Positions 43,698-64,000 of a DNA stretch of 64,000 nt are shown piece after piece (within the stretch, counting starts at the first letter, position 1; each line of letters starts with the position of its first letter). Origin of the DNA: an uncultured Gammaproteobacteria bacterium (GTDB lineage Bacteria; Pseudomonadota; Gammaproteobacteria; Arenicellales; JAANXG01); contig CAVSUY010000003.1 of the NCBI GenBank assembly GCA_963731035.1, positions 49,012 through 113,011 on the forward strand. Reading direction: 5' to 3'. Made by a program: the position numbers and the translations under genes. The notes beneath the pieces are model-generated. The model did not search any database. It was not told where the DNA came from and saw nothing but the letters and a program-made list of their open reading frames with translations.

Positions 43698-44468
43698 ATG
43701 GCTGATCTGGACCCAGACGACAACAACAAGGACTCATTCATCTCGCACCTGGTCGAGTTGCGCGACCGTATTCTGCGTAGTCTGGTGGTGGTCCTGGCCC
43801 TCGTCGTGATAATGGCGCCGTTCGCCAATGATCTGTATGTGATCTTCGCCCACCCCCTCATGTCGATCCTGCCCAAGGGCGACACCATGATCTCCACCCA
43901 GCCCCACGGGCCGTTCTTGGTGCCTCTGAAACTGGTGGTGTCCCTGGCTGTGATCGCCGCCATGCCGTATCTGTTGTACCAGATGTGGGCGTTTGTGGCG
44001 CCCGGGCTGTACGAGAACGAGAAAGCGATCGCCGTGCCGCTGCTGATCTCCAGCACGGTGCTGTTCTACCTCGGCATCCTGTTCGCCTACTTCGTGGTGT
44101 TCCCGCTGGTGTTCGCGTTCTTCACCAGGACCGCGCCGGAAGGGGTGGCGGTGATGACGGATATCGACGCCTATTTCAACTTCTGCATGAAGTTGTTCTT
44201 TGCCTTCGGCGCCTGCTTCGAGGTGCCCATCGCCATTATCATTCTGGTGAAGCTGGGACTCACCACCCCGCAAGCCCTGGCTGCCAAGCGGCCTTACATC
44301 ATCGTCACCGCGTTCGTGGTCGGCATGCTCATGACACCCCCGGACATCTTCTCCCAGACCATGCTGGCGGTACCGATCTGGATCCTGTTCGAGTTCGGAC
44401 TGTGGTTTGCCAGGCGGATACGCCCGCGGGGGCAGGACGAGGAAACCGAAGCCGAAGACGCCGGCTGA
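43698..44468 (+). CDS. tatC: Tat translocase TatC
   Basis: SHLVELRDR, YQMWAFVAPGLY..E and TPPD motifs. Confidence 0.96.
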   Translation: MADLDPDDNNKDSFISHLVELRDRILRSLVVVLALVVIMAPFANDLYVIFAHPLMSILPKGDTMISTQPHGPFLVPLKLVVSLAVIAAMPYLLYQMWAFVAPGLYENEKAIAVPLLISSTVLFYLGILFAYFVVFPLVFAFFTRTAPEGVAVMTDIDAYFNFCMKLFFAFGACFEVPIAIIILVKLGLTTPQALAAKRPYIIVTAFVVGMLMTPPDIFSQTMLAVPIWILFEFGLWFARRIRPRGQDEETEAEDAG

Positions 44469-58089: not shown

Positions 58090-58377
58090 CTACTCGTGGG
58101 CGATGGGCTTTTCGGTAAACAGATAGTCCCTCAATTGCTTGTCCAGCACCCCGTCCCGGCGCCGAATCCACTCCAGAACCATGGCGGCGTGCTCCTTTTC
58201 CTCGTCCCGATTATGGGCCAGTATGGCTGCGAGCTCCTTGTCCTTGCAGGCGTCGACGCGCTGGTTGTACCAGTCTATCGCTTCGAGCTCCTCCATCAGG
58301 GACGTGATGGCGCGATGCATGTCACGCGTTTCGTCGGACATCTCCTCGATCGGCTCGTGGTAGCCTTCGTTCGCCAT
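58090..58377 (-). CDS. Encapsulin-associated-type ferritin-like protein (EncFtn), 95 aa
   Basis: GYHEP..RDMHRAITSLMEELEAIDWYNQR..ILAHNRDEEKEHAAM.LEWIRR.D; GGAG RBS. Confidence 0.9.
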   Translation of the reverse strand: MANEGYHEPIEEMSDETRDMHRAITSLMEELEAIDWYNQRVDACKDKELAAILAHNRDEEKEHAAMVLEWIRRRDGVLDKQLRDYLFTEKPIAHE

Positions 58378-58553
58378 AGAAGTATCTCCAGGAAAATTGA
58401 CAGTATCGACGTATATTACGTGGGATTCAGTCGCGAATAAACGCCTGTTGAAATCCGGTTTTTGCATACTATCATTGAGCTTCGATCATTCAGGCGCCGC
58501 ACCGCAACGGGAGGCGGCACCGGACATTCATCATCGGAACGGGAGGACGAACC

Positions 58554-58781
58554 ATGTTGGACAAGCACGAACAATGGCGGGCGCTGTGCGATGAGCACGA
58601 GGTCGCCCGAGCCGGCTACTTCGCGAATTCACGCCTGCTGACGGACAAGTATGCGCGGGTGTTTCAGGGTGACCGGAACGCGGCGCCTACTGAGCAGGAG
58701 ATCGAGCGCGCCCGGGCAGCGCGTGAAAAATGGGAGGAGGTGAGACAACGCATGGATGATTTCGTGTTGCGAAACACCTAG
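58554..58781 (+). CDS. Hypothetical small helical protein (75 aa)
   Basis: Strong GGAGG RBS before the ATG; amphipathic helical sequence; no family recognised. Confidence 0.6.
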   Translation: MLDKHEQWRALCDEHEVARAGYFANSRLLTDKYARVFQGDRNAAPTEQEIERARAAREKWEEVRQRMDDFVLRNT

Positions 58782-58832: not shown

Positions 58833-59084
58833 GACGCGGCGTCCGCCTTTCGAACGGTGCTGTCCCTGGCCCCGACATCTTTGCTGGCACGCAACAACCT
58901 GCCCTACCTGCTTGCCCCGGGAGGGCTGCATGGACCAGGCTCTCGAGGAGACCGACGAGGCTTTGGACCAGGCCGGCGGCGAGAATGCCGACCTCAAGAA
59001 GACGCTGCTTCAGACGCGCTCCGAGATCGAGTCCCGGGAGCAGTCGGGTGCCGCGGCGTCCGGCTCCTGTCCCCGAAGGAAATC
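58833..59084 (+). pseudogene. Frameshifted C-terminal TPR gene remnant
   Basis: DAASAFRTVLSLAPTSLLARNNLPYLLA, then an extra C at about 58915-58918, then REGCMDQALEETDEAL; no convincing start. Confidence 0.55.
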
Positions 59085-59161
<77 letters not shown>

Positions 59162-59255
59162 GTGTCGGACCGACACGCCTCATTGTAACAAGAGGCGTGG
59201 CGGCCCCGGCAGCGCGCTATGGGCGAGATGCCGCGACGACCCCCGGAAAACGACC

Positions 59256-59666
59256 TTACGGGCCGGAGACGCCGTCGCTGCAGCTGGCGCCCAGGTTCAG
59301 CGGGAGGGTGTACGAGTCGGTGATGGTGAATGGCCCGACTCCGCCACACTGGTAATAGATATCTCCCGAACAATTGGCCACCTTGACGGTCAGGGTCACC
59401 TGTACTGTGTTGTCCGTGACCAACTCGACGGTGACGCGGCTGCTTGTGACGTCGCAGCCGCCCCAAGTGCCTTGGTCGAAATTCGAAAAGTGGACCTCCG
59501 ATCCATCCCAGTCGTTCACATGGCCGATGCGTGCCGGCACGGGATAGGTGAGATAGGTATAGGGCATGTCGCCAAACCAGACGTCCAGCCTCGCCGTGCT
59601 GCCGCCTCCCACCGCACCATCGACGCAGACCTCGATGGACTGCTCAAAAGAGTAGTTGCACGCCAT
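59256..59666 (-). CDS. Hypothetical beta-rich protein with six Cys and no signal peptide
   Basis: 136-aa ORF with an AGGGGG RBS; Thr/Ser/Gly/Val-rich with strand-like patterns. Confidence 0.7.
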   Translation of the reverse strand: MACNYSFEQSIEVCVDGAVGGGSTARLDVWFGDMPYTYLTYPVPARIGHVNDWDGSEVHFSNFDQGTWGGCDVTSSRVTVELVTDNTVQVTLTVKVANCSGDIYYQCGGVGPFTITDSYTLPLNLGASCSDGVSGP

Positions 59667-59685
59667 TGTCGCTTACCCCCTTTGG

Positions 59686-59910
59686 CTAACTGTAGGCACC
59701 GACGATTCCAGCCACGGAAGCTCGCTGGGTGATCTGGAATCCCGACGTCTGTGCGTGAGCCGGCAAGGCGACAGCCTTGACGATCGGCTCGGACCAATGG
59801 GACAAGGTCACCCCGCCCACACCCACTGCCAGGCCCTTGACCACGCCTCGACGGCCGGTGCGCGGTCGCTTGTCCGATGTTTTGGTGGAAGAACTGCTCG
59901 AGTCGTTCAT
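59686..59910 (-). CDS. Twin-arginine 'LPAHAQTS' motif small protein (74 aa)
   Basis: GRRGVVKGLAVGVGG..WSEPIVKAVALPAHAQTS; GAGGGGG RBS upstream of the ATG at 59910. Confidence 0.8.
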   Translation of the reverse strand: MNDSSSSSTKTSDKRPRTGRRGVVKGLAVGVGGVTLSHWSEPIVKAVALPAHAQTSGFQITQRASVAGIVGAYS

Positions 59911-60032
59911 CTGTTGAACCCCCTCTGATGAGATGGCGGGCACCATTGGAAACCCCCTGCGTTGGTGTGCCCCTGTATGCGCCGGGGACCGCCCCGGACG
60001 TGCTTATGCAAGCTACTGGATTCCCTGTGTCC

Positions 60033-60060
60033 ATTATTGGGTTTTCCAGGACCAAGTCAA
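60033..60060 (-). promoter_or_regulatory. Putative sigma-70 promoter for the two small genes
   Basis: Minus strand TTGACT-N16-AATAAT in a high-GC background, overlapping the GT stop codon. Confidence 0.45.
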
Positions 60061-62510
60061 TTGAAAAAATGGCCCAGAGCGCGTATCCAGGATTGCCGGG
60101 TCTCATCCGCGTCGTGATGGGCGAGCACCTGCTCGAATTCCGCGGCCAGCCTTGCCCGGGCCTCCCGCGCGAGCCTCGGCAGGTCCGAGAACACCCGTTG
60201 CAGGGCCTCGATATCCACTCCCGCTTCTTGTCCGATACCGCCCTGCATCCACCGGAAAGCAGGCCGTGCCGGGCGAGGAGGCCCCGGCGGCACCAGGATT
60301 ATGCCTGGCAGATGACGCAATTCCGCATGGACGTGGGCATCGAGGAGAACGACCGGCTTGCCCAGGTGCAGCGCCTCGCGCGGGGTGACGGACCAGCCTT
60401 CTCCCGAGGACAGGAAACAGTAGACGTCGAGCCCGCTCATCCATTCGAGGTATTCCCCCCGGCTGAGGGACGCGACCCGCAGCTCGATATTGCCGCAGTC
60501 GAGGGCCGATTCGATCCGGCGGTGCTCTTCCTGGGCCTCCCGGTCCCGGGGCTCGGTGCGAGTGTGGATCCGAAGCCGGAAATCGGGGTGTCCGCCAAGG
60601 ACGGCCGCGAAGGCCTCCGCCGTCAACGCGAGGTTCTTGCGTGGCCACAGGCCAGCCGACATGCCGAGCGTCAATGGTTGTCCGGAGTCGTCGCCCCCGG
60701 CCACTGGCGGGCGAACCACGTACTCGTAGGGATGGGGCAGCTTAACGAAACGAACCTCGTGCTCCCGCAGGTAGTCTTCGAGCAGTGACGAGGTGATGAT
60801 GGTCAGATCATAGGCGCGGACGAGATCCAGCATTGGGTTCCACAGCCGGTCCGTCTCCCACATCAGGTAGACGGCGCAACAGGCGGCGAAACGCCCCCGC
60901 ATGTCGAGAACCCGGTCGATCTGCTCGCGGATCGACTTTTCACCGCCCGGCAAACCTACCACGTCCAGGTACAGACAGTTCTGGAACAGGTCTGGACGCT
61001 GCTCGTGTACATAGCTCGAGAGCCCGTCGTAGAGCTCGGGTGAATAGCTGGACACACGTTCGTCGAGACTCTTGTAGCGGATCCCGGACCCGTTGAAAAC
61101 CAGGCGATCCAGAAGACGCAGGTGGGCGCCGACCCCGTCACGGGGATAGTCCCAGCCGGAGTACACGATGCTCGAGAATCCGAGTTGCTCGCCGGCGTCG
61201 ATCGCCGCGCCAGGATCCGCCGTCGCCCGGGCGCGGCGCTCGGCGTCCTGGCGATAGCGCTCGCATTCACCGGGATCGAGACAATGCCCCGCCAGACGCT
61301 CGAACTCCTCGACGCCGCACTCCAGGGCCGACCGGGCGATCTCGATTATCGGTTGGAGTACCCTGGGCCAGGCATATCGTCGGCGCACGTCGGCGCCGGC
61401 AGTAACGAGCTTGTCGCGCTCCTCCGTCCAGTGGTCCACGGCATGACGCAACTTTGCGATCAGGTCCTCCTCGTCCACGGCACAGTATCGCCCGCACTGG
61501 TGATCGACGCGCGGCGCCCGTATGACGCCTCCGGGCCGCAGGCAAATGGAGTTGTCTCTGTCGAGGTAGTCCGCCATGCCTCCCGTCGCCGGCGCGATTA
61601 CCGGCGTCTCGCAGGCGATGGATTCGAGCGGCACGAGCCCGAAGCCCTCGCCTTTGGAGGGGTGGACGGTGCAATGCACCTCGGAATACACCCGCGCGGC
61701 ATCCCTCAGGCTCAGGGCCCCCGGCGGATCGAATTCCACCAGGCGGCCGTAGTCCGGCCAGCCTGGACAGGCGGGCAGCCAGCGACGGTCACCGATTCGT
61801 AGACGAAGGACGATGTCGTCCCGCCCCTCGAACGCGATCTGGAAGCAGCGTATCAATTCCCGGTAGCCCTTTCTCTCCGCTACCAGGTGACTGCGTAAGC
61901 TGTTGTAGAAGACGAAGCGCCCGTTCGGCCGCAATCCCTCGATCAGGCGATGCTGCGGATGCACGCCGTGCGGCACGACCATGACGGGGCTCGTGACCCC
62001 GGACCGCAGGAACGCCATCCTGCAGGAACGCGAGGGCACCACGATCAGGTGAAATCGATTGCAGGCTCGCACCCATTCCGGGAGGATCTGATCCGTCTCG
62101 CAGACACAGATCCCTATCCTGATGTCATGCGAAAAGAAGAAATCCGGCGCATGGGTGGGAAAGCCGAAAAATATCCCCACCCGCGCCCGCCGGTTGAGCC
62201 CGGTGAGATGTGACAGCACGGGATCGCTTGGTTCCGGACCGGCATAGTTGCACAGGGCAAGCTCCGTGATTTCATCTGCGAGAGCGTGCGCCAACGCACC
62301 GAATACGTTCGAATACGAATCGGTGCCCGCCAGGTAGCCATAAAGCTGAAGGCGGGCGTCCGGCCTGTGGCGGCCCCCAAAGGATATCTTTGGCGGTGCG
62401 TCGGGCGGACTGAAATTGAATTGGAAGTGTGCGCGGCGCACTTGTCCGAGAGTGTGGGCCCGCGTCCCGGGCTCAGCCGCGATCGTCGCGGCGGGCCTTG
62501 CCGGTCGCAT
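60057..62510 (-). CDS. Glycosyltransferase with two tandem GT4 (GT-B) modules
   Basis: Two EX7E motifs (EGFGLVPLE, EGWSVTPRE); N-lobes with VCETD and MWETD; start uncertain. Confidence 0.85.
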   Translation of the reverse strand: MRPARPAATIAAEPGTRAHTLGQVRRAHFQFNFSPPDAPPKISFGGRHRPDARLQLYGYLAGTDSYSNVFGALAHALADEITELALCNYAGPEPSDPVLSHLTGLNRRARVGIFFGFPTHAPDFFFSHDIRIGICVCETDQILPEWVRACNRFHLIVVPSRSCRMAFLRSGVTSPVMVVPHGVHPQHRLIEGLRPNGRFVFYNSLRSHLVAERKGYRELIRCFQIAFEGRDDIVLRLRIGDRRWLPACPGWPDYGRLVEFDPPGALSLRDAARVYSEVHCTVHPSKGEGFGLVPLESIACETPVIAPATGGMADYLDRDNSICLRPGGVIRAPRVDHQCGRYCAVDEEDLIAKLRHAVDHWTEERDKLVTAGADVRRRYAWPRVLQPIIEIARSALECGVEEFERLAGHCLDPGECERYRQDAERRARATADPGAAIDAGEQLGFSSIVYSGWDYPRDGVGAHLRLLDRLVFNGSGIRYKSLDERVSSYSPELYDGLSSYVHEQRPDLFQNCLYLDVVGLPGGEKSIREQIDRVLDMRGRFAACCAVYLMWETDRLWNPMLDLVRAYDLTIITSSLLEDYLREHEVRFVKLPHPYEYVVRPPVAGGDDSGQPLTLGMSAGLWPRKNLALTAEAFAAVLGGHPDFRLRIHTRTEPRDREAQEEHRRIESALDCGNIELRVASLSRGEYLEWMSGLDVYCFLSSGEGWSVTPREALHLGKPVVLLDAHVHAELRHLPGIILVPPGPPRPARPAFRWMQGGIGQEAGVDIEALQRVFSDLPRLAREARARLAAEFEQVLAHHDADETRQSWIRALGHFFN

Positions 62511-62805
62511 CTGCGGGGGGCGATAGGGCCGGCCATTTTCCCTCGGGGCACGCGAATCCCGCGTACCAGGTTTTGATGCCCATGGCGCAGAGGCAGCGAC
62601 GGCATTGGGTGGTTACGGGAACGAACTCCTCGCAGTCCTGGCAAATGGCATAGCGCTCCCACTTGACTTCTCTCGGAACCCGCCAGAACTTCTCGTTCAA
62701 GCGCCGCCAGCGTGCCTTGCCCACCTTGATCCAGGCGGTCCACGCCCATTGCGTTTCGCGCTGATCCGGCTGTGAGTCGTCAGGTTCGTGTTGGAACTCG
62801 TTCAT
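62473..62805 (-). CDS. Small Cys-rich protein, DUF6171-like
   Basis: R..ICxxC..QCxxCxCxMxxK..CPxxKW pattern; family name is from recall. Confidence 0.7.
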   Translation of the reverse strand: MNEFQHEPDDSQPDQRETQWAWTAWIKVGKARWRRLNEKFWRVPREVKWERYAICQDCEEFVPVTTQCRRCLCAMGIKTWYAGFACPEGKWPALSPPADATGKARRDDRG

Positions 62806-62886
62806 GCCCTGCTCATGGGAATGCTGCCCCGCCCGGCCCGGTGCGGCCGGGGAATTGGTATAGAATCATCCGCTGTGGCTAACCCA

Positions 62887-64000
62887 ATGGATTCCTGCTC
62901 GCTCAGGGTGTTTGAAGCGGGAATCTGGCTCTTTTATCACAACTCACCATGGCCCGCTATCTTGATTGACTCCTCCACCGTCGTGCGTCCGAGATTGCAC
63001 GTATTCACGATGGCAAACGAGCGCCATGGCGGATTCCTGAGCTCATGCGGGCTGATGAGACGCCTGCAGTCGCACTTCCACGTCGATGCCTGGCCGCTAA
63101 CCGGCGCGACACCCGACGAGAATGCCACCGCGCTGCGCGAAGCAGCGGACGAGGTCCACTTGGACGGTGGCGTCCCTGCCTGCGACATCCGCGGCCACGT
63201 CCTCTTCTACATGAACGACTATCCACCGCTGTTCAGCAACTTTTCCCGGCAGTGGCAGCGGGCGCTCCGGGATGCGGCCAGTGTACAGATCGCGTTCAAC
63301 CGGACTCTGGGCAGCCTGCCCCGTGAACACTGGCTCGCACGGCAAGTCACCCGGATCTATTTTCATGATTCGTGGATGGGTGAATCCTGGCGCTTTTTGA
63401 CCAATGAGTCACCGCTGGCAGACATACCGGCCGAGGTGTTGGCGCCGCCCGCCGATCTCACACGTTTCCTGCGCATCTCCGCGCCGCGGTCCGGGCCCGT
63501 GGTGGTTGGCCGCTTCGCCGGTGATGCCAGCGTTCCGCGCAACGCCGTCGAACTCTACCGGCAGCTCTCCGACAACGTGCCGGAGGCCGAGTGGTGGTTT
63601 ATGCCGGCGCCTGCCGCGCTGGAAGAGGTATTCGGCGGCGACCGTCGATTCCGATTTTTTGCCCGGAACGCCATGGACCCCGTCGAGTTTCTTTCATCCT
63701 GCCACATCGCCGCACTGACCTATTGGGCCGGCGTCCCGGTGCCCGGGCCGCGCTCGCTGATGGAGGCCATGGCGGCGGGCTGTGCGCCGGTGGTGATCGA
63801 CCGCGAGGGACCGCGCGACCGGGTCATTCACGGGGAGTCAGGGTTCCGGACCAATGACGACCTGGAGTTCATCGACTACATCGCGAGGTTGGCGCGGGAT
63901 CCGGTGCTGCGCGATCGTATCGCCGCGGGTGCCAGGGAACGGGCGCGGCGGTGGGGTCCGGATGTATGGGTAGAGCGGATCGTGGCAAACAGCCTCGGGC
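62887..64000 (+). CDS. GT4-like glycosyltransferase (3' end outside the window; absent from the ORF track)
   Basis: Manual translation: open from ATG 62887 (or TTG 62962 / GTG 62983) to the window end; VVGR..PGPRSLMEAMAAGCAPVV..GPRDRVIHGESGF..LARDPVLRDRIAAGARERA. Confidence 0.82.
   Translation, partial: MDSCSLRVFEAGIWLFYHNSPWPAILIDSSTVVRPRLHVFTMANERHGGFLSSCGLMRRLQSHFHVDAWPLTGATPDENATALREAADEVHLDGGVPACDIRGHVLFYMNDYPPLFSNFSRQWQRALRDAASVQIAFNRTLGSLPREHWLARQVTRIYFHDSWMGESWRFLTNESPLADIPAEVLAPPADLTRFLRISAPRSGPVVVGRFAGDASVPRNAVELYRQLSDNVPEAEWWFMPAPAALEEVFGGDRRFRFFARNAMDPVEFLSSCHIAALTYWAGVPVPGPRSLMEAMAAGCAPVVIDREGPRDRVIHGESGFRTNDDLEFIDYIARLARDPVLRDRIAAGARERARRWGPDVWVERIVANSLG

Follow-up and report, generated by a model that had tools for sequence, protein, structure and literature searches.

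Why should a 74-residue twin-arginine peptide, a small cysteine-rich protein without a signal sequence and several glycosyltransferases be encoded side by side? The question is raised by a cassette at the right-hand end of a 64,000-nucleotide stretch of DNA from an uncultured gammaproteobacterium. This stretch, referred to as the window, corresponds to bases 49012-113011 of contig C3 of the source genome, G000 (28 contigs, 4.396 Mb, 97.5% complete); other genomes of the order are designated G003, G013 and so on, and contigs C3, C18 and so on. The reading favoured here, with a probability of about 0.45, is that the cassette is a dedicated system for glycosylating small proteins in the cytoplasm before the twin-arginine translocation (Tat) pathway exports them.

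Conservation and composition of the cassette

The gene set was followed through a sample of 243 genomes of the order. A profile of the 136-residue partner, a protein with six conserved cysteines (six-Cys), matched seven genomes from four genera and three families (G000, G003, G041, G049, G077, G088 and G091). The divergent glycosyltransferase of family 4 (GT4) at the right edge of the window, referred to as the third GT4, matched eight at E<=1e-20 (G000, G003, G041, G049, G077, G088, G013 and G015). Six genomes carry both, and the nine loci of the union were fetched and scanned. Each of the nine has a gene for a short Tat-type peptide immediately upstream of one for a small, signal-less cysteine protein, with a GT4 gene within ~1.5 kb. 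The initial annotation, made from the letters of the window alone, had treated these genes as one undescribed system, and the occurrence of the pair with a GT4 in 9/243 genomes bears this grouping out.

The peptide carries an LPAHAQ-type leader in G000, G003, G013, G015, G077, G088 (as two tandem pairs) and G091, followed by tails of 18-29 residues. In seven genomes its partner comes from the six-Cys family; the partner in G013 and G015 is a protein of 116-117 amino acids (aa) with four cysteines and a similar start, negative with the six-Cys profile. In G041 and G049 the peptide at the equivalent position has a tail of ~57 aa, and its Tat signal, RRKFIKT…ASA, is of the ordinary kind. Because these two genomes carry an ordinary Tat signal at that place, the LPAHAQTS leader appears to stand in for one, and this exchange would be the strongest argument from sequence that the leader works as a Tat signal.

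The enzymes vary more between loci. A DUF6171-like protein is encoded in 7/9 of them. The double GT4 fusion is complete in G000, G003 and G091, and a fragment of its C-terminal half stands at a contig start in G088. A full sugar set (nucleotidyl transferase, or NTP-transferase, an epimerase, two methyltransferases and a GT2) accompanies the pair in G000, G003, G041, G049 and G077; an epimerase, one methyltransferase and a GT2 do so in G013 and G015. The loci span 42.7% to 70% in G+C content, and flanking genes agree only between G000 and G003.

A second cassette type was found on contig C18 of G000 and in G003 and G092. It combines a short LPAHAQTS peptide (tail of 12-16 residues), an unrelated signal-less protein of 83 aa and a GT4 that resembles the N-terminal half of the 817-aa fusion enzyme. 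At the paralogous C18 locus, separate genes encode the counterparts of the two halves of the fused GT4. In G003 the second-type GT4 is spread over two overlapping frames and may be broken.

No 19-residue Kyte-Doolittle window reaches 1.6 in the 11 cassette proteins (highest values 1.42 in G000 and 1.54 in G041), and Pfam scans of the window genes and of the ten genes to their right found no flippase (wzx), polymerase (wzy), ABC-transporter or initiating-transferase family. Except for the peptide's signal the components are therefore soluble, which fits a soluble acceptor. The conserved set, with no membrane protein among its members, also agrees with the earlier placement of the glycosyltransferases outside an ordinary lipopolysaccharide (LPS) or exopolysaccharide (EPS) cluster.

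The claim that nucleotide-sugar genes are missing is true inside the window, but such genes begin ~2 kb past base 64000. The third GT4 ends 29 nt beyond that base and is followed by a GT2 and a 2-oxoglutarate (2OG)-Fe(II) oxygenase. Farther on are two proteins with C-methyltransferase domains (Methyltransf_14; one also Methyltransf_13), an NAD-dependent epimerase/dehydratase and a nucleotidyl transferase that scores 288 bits against a glucose-1-phosphate cytidylyltransferase model with a cut-off of 300. Nucleotide-sugar genes do follow rightwards, yet they do not amount to an ordinary LPS or EPS cluster.

Open reading frame (ORF) calls place the five cassette genes exactly where they had been described, including the 38 nt shared by the 110-aa and 817-aa ORFs and the third GT4 running past the window (Table 1). 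For the peptide, the start at ATG 59910 is favoured because a Shine-Dalgarno sequence, AGAGGGGG, lies 8 nt upstream, a 19-residue stretch precedes the RR, and G003 has the same layout. The six-Cys ATG follows the peptide's TAG by 19 nt in another frame, with AAGGGGG upstream (the spacing is 8-9 nt for both small genes), and the G-rich ribosome-binding sites reported for the two genes are thereby recovered. A TAA in the six-Cys frame stands two codons before the six-Cys ATG; with the difference in frame, it means that the two ORFs cannot be read as one. The TAG stop, the G-rich Shine-Dalgarno sequence and the ATG in the other frame are shared by G000 and G003, whose six-Cys proteins are 43% identical.

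The peptide consists of an n-region, RRGVVKG, a Gly-rich h-region, the leader motif and an 18-aa tail that is uncharged and rich in Gly, Ser, Thr and Ala. The h-region is weakly hydrophobic (highest 19-residue Kyte-Doolittle value 0.95), and AHA stands before QTS. The Tat consensus is S/T-R-R-x-F-L-K. The leader family has RRxLLK at this place, with one arginine invariant and the other conserved in at least 90%. In a 32-member alignment the histidine and the following alanine of the AHA site are invariant, and the preceding alanine is conserved in at least 90%. The only TatC match in G000 (C3:92754-93386, window 43743-44375, plus strand, 224.5 bits) lies ~15 kb from the cassette. An RR leader in a genome with TatC supports the twin-arginine type assigned earlier. 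A database search with the 74-aa peptide that was confined to near lengths returned three proteins, too few to judge the frequency of short forms.

The N-terminus of the six-Cys protein, fixed by the in-frame TAA, is not hydrophobic (highest Kyte-Doolittle value 0.82), and no signal peptide is present; either a carrier model or a cytoplasmic role is consequently needed. A HMMER scan of 1.84 billion representative proteins found 15 relatives at E<=0.001. Eleven of them measure 122-144 aa and align from residues 1-11; the remainder are a 59-aa piece, a 174-aa protein and two long proteins (1649 and 869 aa) that match in part or repeatedly. None of the 15 has the leader fused ahead of the six-Cys region. 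The family alignment (A3) contains six conserved cysteines without CxxC spacing, and 13 members begin at or near MxxNCY. A derivation of the protein as the detached mature domain of a leader-family member was considered and rejected: BLAST and hidden Markov model (HMM) comparisons with 49 paralogues gave a best E of 0.06.

An AlphaFold2 model of the six-Cys protein is all-beta with eight strands (predicted local distance difference test, pLDDT, 82.2; predicted template modelling score, pTM, 0.77). Foldseek returned nothing from the PDB at E<=0.001, the best hit of the wide VIA search (Z 4.7 for 7cwj, with 5xmz and 4aud close) was within background, and the ESM Atlas gave no usable feature match and a best structural template modelling score of 0.53. 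A complex predicted for the six-Cys protein and the part of the peptide that begins at the W motif scored 0.01 against a mark of 0.32, a value that counts neither way on binding.

A sigma-70-like site, TTGACT-16-AATAAT (10/12 matches), lies just upstream of the peptide gene, and TTGACT is present at the equivalent place in G003. The site is well placed for the promoter of their own that had been proposed for the small genes, but the one promoter-like site of the region compares with 0.9 expected in shuffled sequence, so that only its position is suggestive. The stretch occurs in many salt-marsh, soil and sediment metagenome runs and partly in four metatranscriptome runs. Within positions 58900-63100, contigs from all four of the latter cover 59052-60013, comprising the tRNA, the six-Cys gene and the peptide gene; a single contig bridges both small genes in X18 (59352-60003), as does another in X19 (59310-59815). 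All four runs have contigs that stop at 60003 or 60013, without a loose end, which places the stops 20-30 nt downstream of the promoter-like site; these shared ends are a weak hint of a transcript start. RNA contigs cover the glycosyltransferase genes only at 61426-61633, 62621-62904 and 62989-63100, and the missing cover is uninformative on expression.

The 817-aa protein matches Glycos_transf_1 (PF00534; 64.2 bits, E 1.4e-17) and Glyco_trans_1_4 (PF13692; 70 bits, E 3.4e-19), each over two stretches, and divides into an N-terminal half (about residues 1-430) and a C-terminal half (about 431-817). The third GT4 scores 39.3 and 30.9 bits against the same two families, above cut-off (E 6.2e-10 for Glycos_transf_1); because its homologues align only from about residue 66, its true start probably lies near 62.96-63.01 kb. 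Compared with solved structures, the 817-aa enzyme gave generic GT-B matches only (E ~1e-4, sucrose-phosphate-synthase-like), and the third GT4 gave none at E<=0.01.

Pfam matched none of the three small proteins of the window, and neither the 110-aa protein nor its G003 orthologue has a Pfam match even at E<=10. The earlier label of DUF6171-like stands only by way of homologues in G024 and G037 (search E 1.5e-18 and 9.4e-14), which score 28.8 and 28 bits against DUF6171 (PF19668; cut-off 27). Within the order, DUF6171 was found in 5/243 genomes at E<=1e-3, two of them above cut-off. The DUF6171-like family has six invariant cysteines, CxxC-x9-CxxCxC-x12-C, and a conserved KFWRVP; the protein probably binds metal. 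Its model has a pLDDT of 74.5 and a best structural Z of 2.9. G027 belongs to another family of the order; on its contig C7 (L043:6457-9738), a leader-family gene, a sulfotransferase-like gene and a gene for an 89-aa PqqD-like protein (the last two labelled by eye) are all found no more than 2 kb from a DUF6171-like gene.

Table 1. Features of the cassette and its left edge, in window coordinates
Feature	Position	Strand	Basis or remark
tRNA-Arg(CCG)	59085-59161	-	left edge of cassette
Six-Cys protein, 136 aa	59256-59666	-	ORF call
ORF of 86 aa holding the short Tat-type peptide	59686-59946	-	likely start ATG at 59910, giving 74 aa
Short twin-arginine peptide, 74 aa plus stop	59686-59910	-	RRGVVKG, leader motif
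Peptide tail, 18 aa	59689-59742	-	
Leader motif W..P.V..V.LPAHAQTS	59743-59796	-	
Promoter candidate, sigma-70-like, TTGACT-16-AATAAT	60033-60060	-	
Double-GT4 fusion, 817 aa	60057-62510	-	Pfam, two stretches per family
DUF6171-like Cys-rich protein, 110 aa	62473-62805	-	matched via homologues
Third GT4, divergent	62788-64000 (runs on)	+	Glycos_transf_1

The LPAHAQTS leader family and its gene neighbourhoods

A six-frame search of G000 with the pattern W..P.[VIL]..[VIL].[LVI]P.[HQ]A found 49 places, nearly all preceded by RR. A profile was built from 29 aligned leaders (alignment A1), with the consensus RRxLLKxxxAGGGxxxxxxxxPxxWxxPVVxSVxLPAHAQTS and invariant R, W, P, P, H and A; it identified 55 leader genes in G000 (examples are C3:3959-4423, C6:5997-6269, C11:1142-1570 and C19:3982-4488). 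Most members have 90-170 aa after the motif, and these mature parts are mostly unrelated: only 16/49 match a paralogue at E<1e-3. Seven members, the window peptide among them, are short, with 9-22 residues after the motif. The initial annotation had presented the peptide as a lone micro-precursor, a description that gives way to that of a short member of a 55-gene family.

The family is almost free of annotation. No Pfam family matched the leader in 32 members, and NCBIfam gave nothing for it in the same members except a generic Tat-signal model (3/32). A collection of 5.8 billion proteins held 69 leader relatives; every source name given was 'hypothetical protein', and precomputed Pfam domains were limited to three (PF13884 twice, PF01483 once). 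The leader is present in 25/41 close relatives, G000 included, with 55 matches in G000, 45 in G003, 26 in G002, 20 in G027, 19 in G039 and 16 in G032. In an even sample of the class, with only 17 candidates scored per genome, 6/401 genomes carry it, including three that do not belong to the order. The A1 profile can be used now to find such proteins in metagenomes.

Some features of the family are described here in their own right. Eighteen of the 55 leader genes lie <10 kb from a contig end, against a random mean of 6.3. About 14/55 (for example C9:98651, C11:25744, C12:68333 and C7:246976) have a second motif, approximately [IVW]LD.[LIF]..P.A.A, 17-40 residues past QTS; the pattern itself matched 8/55, and about six more were added by eye. 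The segment between QTS and the second motif is Gly-rich, resembles the tails of the short peptides and may be a propeptide with a second cleavage site. The short leader ORFs at C7:3511-3660 and C7:181172-181387 each overlap a following ORF that is in a different frame and resembles a continuation; unlike the window pair, these are probably frameshifted genes or assembly errors.

In G000, leader genes lie near glycosyltransferase and hydroxylase genes more often than randomly placed genes do. Within 3 kb of a leader gene stand 9/37 Glycos_transf_1 matches (random mean 2.9, reached in 2/1000 trials), 10/46 Glycos_transf_2 matches (random mean 3.7, reached in 1/1000) and 5/6 JmjC_2 matches (random mean 0.49, reached in 0/1000). 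Counted from the leader side, 23/55 genes have a GT4, GT2 or JmjC_2 neighbour at <=3 kb (random mean 5.1 and maximum 13 in 1000 trials). Seven of the 11 paralogues of the window's GT4 have a leader gene no more than 5 kb away (hypergeometric p 2.8e-5, with rough gene calls). The counts are not independent, leader genes being clustered in islands and 18/55 being near contig ends. The five leader-adjacent JmjC_2 genes, of the protein-hydroxylase type, are at C7:37263, C13:21247, C12:70106, C7:224745 and C22:8097.

Other neighbours of leader genes are GT2+GT25 fusions and a fusion of Stealth, GT2, LicD and cytidylyltransferase domains, and a GT18-like protein is encoded upstream of the C18 peptide. 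The protein-glycosylation setting suggested earlier gains support from these neighbours, since leader genes outside the cassette adjoin O-FucT, GT18 and GT25. At C6:5166-8861 (L014:2167-5862), a leader protein with a Thr/Pro-repeat mature part is flanked by genes for Sulfotransfer_2, a member of the GDP-fucose protein O-fucosyltransferase family (O-FucT, 83 bits) and a 2OG-Fe(II) oxygenase. At C17:145567-147338 (L015:3568-5339), a short Pro-rich leader ORF lies beside a UDP-galactopyranose mutase gene, together with a TAG-containing GT2 fragment and a 2OG-oxygenase fragment. A jackhmmer search found PqqD-like domains in C3_123722, C10_3014, C10_4893 and C6_42452, and weakly in C10_383; the distance to a leader gene is 8-220 bp for the first three, and C6_42452 is beside leader gene C6:42885-43508.

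Cytoplasmic glycosylation followed by Tat export as the proposed function

In the proposed mechanism, the peptide and six-Cys genes would form one transcription unit with its own promoter, and a CDP-activated, probably C-methylated hexose would be made in the cytoplasm. The glycosyltransferases would place this sugar on the peptide tail, on the conserved QTS by the cleavage site, or on the six-Cys protein. The modified, folded cargo would then leave through Tat, proposed as the exit because Tat accepts folded or bulky substrates, and signal peptidase would cut after AHA. The six-Cys protein would either exit bound to the peptide, as a 'hitchhiker', or stay in the cell as a helper. Since it combines the lack of a signal with six cysteines outside any CxxC spacing, the disulfide-type look of an exported protein, co-export with the peptide would be the simplest reconciliation; even granting glycosylation and Tat export, this carrier-peptide idea is tentative.

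A wider proposal builds on the leader family. The LPAHAQTS leader may mark a new glycoprotein secretion route, by which dozens of proteins per genome would receive sugars in the cytoplasm and cross the membrane folded, through Tat, the window cassette being a carrier device; this is doubtful as yet. Some of these proteins may, with the same doubt, also be hydroxylated or sulfated. The enzymes of such a route would be soluble and would include JmjC hydroxylases as well as families whose names refer to protein glycosylation of the eukaryotic type (O-FucT, GT18, GT25, Stealth). On this route a carrier peptide, made of the leader and ~20 residues, would take a signal-less, disulfide-rich protein across the membrane, a step put forward with similar reserve.

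Several observations weigh against glycosylation followed by Tat export, each functional step of which (glycan, export, binding) is deduced from gene content. Only 3/18 tail residues of the G000 peptide are Ser or Thr. The initial annotation had spoken of Ser/Thr-rich small proteins, but the Ser-rich stretch sits before the RR in the signal and would be cleaved off. The window peptide does not match the curated Tat model TIGR01409 (NCBIfam) at E<=0.1, and 3/32 paralogues match at E<=0.01, although this model is short and such signals often score low. The metatranscriptome contigs come from RNA libraries that may contain DNA, and they show neither strand nor level.

Conservation is also uneven, and related genomes are non-independent samples. 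The ORF calls for G013 and G015 include neither DUF6171 nor an NTP-transferase. In G091 the pair comes with the double GT4 and DUF6171, but without a third GT4 (E<=1e-20) or the sugar set in the 13.6 kb fetched. The link between leader and glycosyltransferase genes is weaker outside G000: in the complete genome G031, 1/50 GT2/GT4 matches falls in the 20-kb island that holds 6/7 leader genes. Finally, soluble GT4 enzymes can act on lipids or small molecules, so that absent membrane proteins do not prove a protein acceptor, and a lipid acceptor reached by peripheral membrane association may be an alternative to a soluble one.

A rather unlikely alternative is that the enzymes build a glycolipid, a soluble glycoside or a polysaccharide with its membrane steps encoded at another locus, and that the pair is a periplasmic accessory for binding, shaping or sensing this product, for example a lectin. 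The combination of GT4, GT2 and a CDP-hexose pathway is typical of glycan clusters, NCBIfam matches the cassette enzymes, in every case far below cut-off, to transferases of the EPS and teichuronic-acid type, and a separate large glycan cluster on C21 could provide membrane steps. The predicted fold of the six-Cys protein, a small beta protein, would also suit such a role, since this shape is common among binding proteins. What speaks against this alternative is that the co-conserved set comes without a membrane protein in the loci examined, that the unrelated 83-aa partner shows an equal arrangement of peptide, partner and GT4, and that other leader genes adjoin Pfam families named for protein glycosylation.

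It is unlikely that the cassette makes a glycopeptide akin to those peptides that ribosomes synthesize and that undergo post-translational modification (RiPPs), with the 18-29-aa tail as the product, glycosylated while the leader serves as a dock, exported by Tat and freed after AHA; it is just as unlikely that the six-Cys protein then remains cytoplasmic, acting as scaffold, chaperone or immunity factor. Shortness, strong conservation of the leader and variability of the tail give the peptide the form of a RiPP precursor, and it would be co-transcribed with a helper from its own promoter candidate. PqqD-like domains, the kind that recognises RiPP leaders, do lie <=220 bp from leader genes elsewhere in G000; in the cassette itself, Pfam scans found no PqqD, leader peptidase or peptide exporter, and the nearest PqqD belongs to a 737-aa protein encoded ~12 kb beyond the cassette and ~14 kb from the peptide gene, beside a different leader gene. 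The 90-170-aa mature parts of most of the 55 family members and the ~57-aa 'tail' of G041 and G049 also fit poorly with a peptide product, and six cysteines without CxxC would, from their spacing, suit an exported disulfide protein better than a cytoplasmic helper.

A reading of the small gene pair as one leader gene split by frameshift or misassembly, with its place beside glycosyltransferases a coincidence, is suggested by the ORF pairs (at least two) on C7 and by the pair's joint length of 74 + 136 aa, usual for a family member, but is highly improbable and is contradicted by the identical split, with its own Shine-Dalgarno sequence and ATG, in G003 and seven further genomes, by the TAA between the peptide stop and the six-Cys ATG, by the standalone six-Cys family, never leader-fused in the 1.84-billion-protein library and with 11 full-length members aligning from residues 1-11, and by the failure of the six-Cys protein to resemble the paralogues' mature parts.

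Comparison with known systems and flanking features

Judged by analogy, the proposed function most resembles that of the GtfA/GtfB systems. In the serine-rich repeat (SRR) adhesin system, the GT4 enzymes GtfA and GtfB glycosylate serine-rich adhesins in the cytoplasm, and export follows through accessory Sec (SecA2/SecY2). Soluble, dedicated GT4 genes beside a protein substrate are common to both, and cytoplasmic glycosylation before export is what is proposed here. Unlike that system, the cassette has a twin-arginine signal, its substrates would be a 74-aa peptide and a 136-aa cysteine protein, and it brings its own CDP-hexose, C-methyltransferase and DUF6171-like genes. Neither small protein contains serine-rich repeats, and SdgA (E 0.061) was the sole adhesin O-glycosyltransferase model to appear in the NCBIfam comparison.

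The arrangement of the partner most resembles, again by analogy, Tat hitchhiking, in which a signal-less subunit is carried by an RR-bearing partner, as in HybO/HybC and DmsA/DmsB. Here too, a signal-less protein is encoded next to, and co-transcribed with, a protein with an RR signal. Known carriers are full-size cofactor subunits, whereas the cassette's carrier would be a signal plus 12-29 residues, and its binding is putative.

Glycocins such as sublancin, modified by a SunS-type GT2, have double-glycine leaders and ABC exporters with a peptidase domain. The cassette shares with them a small leader-bearing peptide beside a glycosyltransferase and the prominence of cysteine in the locus. It differs in that its enzymes are mainly GT4, its cysteines are in a separate protein, and Pfam scans found no exporter of that kind.

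At the level of the leader family, the likeness is to PEP-CTERM/exosortase, NHLP and Nif11, each a large set of paralogues with a common sorting or leader sequence. In both, the paralogues of a genome number dozens, share a short conserved targeting sequence, have unrelated mature parts, belong to environmental bacteria and are often close to glycosyltransferase genes. In contrast to PEP-CTERM, the leader is N-terminal and of the twin-arginine type, and no exosortase-like or peptidase partner was identified. TIGR03088, a PEP-CTERM-system glycosyltransferase model, matches the 817-aa protein at E 2.8e-07, far below cut-off.

Like O-antigen and EPS clusters with a CDP-hexose, the locus has cytidylyltransferase-like, epimerase/dehydratase, C-methyltransferase-like, GT2 and GT4 genes. 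Unlike them, its conserved set comes without an initiating transferase, flippase, polymerase, chain-length regulator, exporter or membrane protein, and it always includes the Tat peptide and the small partner. Compared feature by feature, the cassette departs from an EPS/O-antigen cluster, a glycocin-type RiPP cluster and, as regards serine-rich repeats, the SRR system, and it shows the sequence features of a Tat signal.

A full-text literature search, supplements excluded, turned up no paper that deals with the leader motif or DUF6171, or with a natural system that links glycosylation or a RiPP to Tat. To our knowledge, cytoplasmic protein glycosylation in bacteria is followed by export through Sec-type, accessory Sec, two-partner or autotransporter routes. 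Dedicated cytoplasmic glycosylation of proteins is known; its coupling to Tat export would be new, and more so if the carrier idea holds. The proposal, if true, would explain the unusually conserved signal of a large, unannotated secreted family in sediment Gammaproteobacteria, supply Tat research with a naturally occurring minimal carrier peptide, and provide a compact, wholly soluble toolkit for making and exporting glycoproteins.

To the left, the cassette adjoins a gene for an encapsulin-associated ferritin-like protein, EncFtn (window 58090-58467, minus strand; TIGR04535, 133.6 bits), a homologue of which lies ~1.7 kb from the DUF6171-like gene in G024. An ORF of 75 aa (58554-58781, plus strand) has no family match and is kept at the syntenic place in G003 (L040:12310-12540) with a near-identical start. 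The flank of G003 has the same order as that of G000: a tRNA-sized gap, a 76-aa ORF and EncFtn.

To the right, beyond the nucleotide-sugar genes, the contig continues with a 432-aa protein, an AsmA-family protein and the 737-aa pyruvyl-transferase/PqqD fusion. The 432-aa protein (L002:12725-14023, plus strand) has an N-terminal hydrophobic segment and an early C-x-x-C-H, and matches nothing in Pfam or NCBIfam. The fusion (L002:16723-18936) joins a polysaccharide pyruvyl transferase, PqqD and a C-terminal part with an SGGxDS motif, presumably PP-loop-like, a label that no family match backs. The first ~160 codons of its gene occur twice in near-identical form, at L002:14155-14658 and L002:16723-17226, flanking the AsmA-family gene, and may reflect a duplication or an assembly repeat. 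At the contig end, 29 bp from the fusion gene, stands a second gene with the LPAHAQTS motif (L002:18959-19345).

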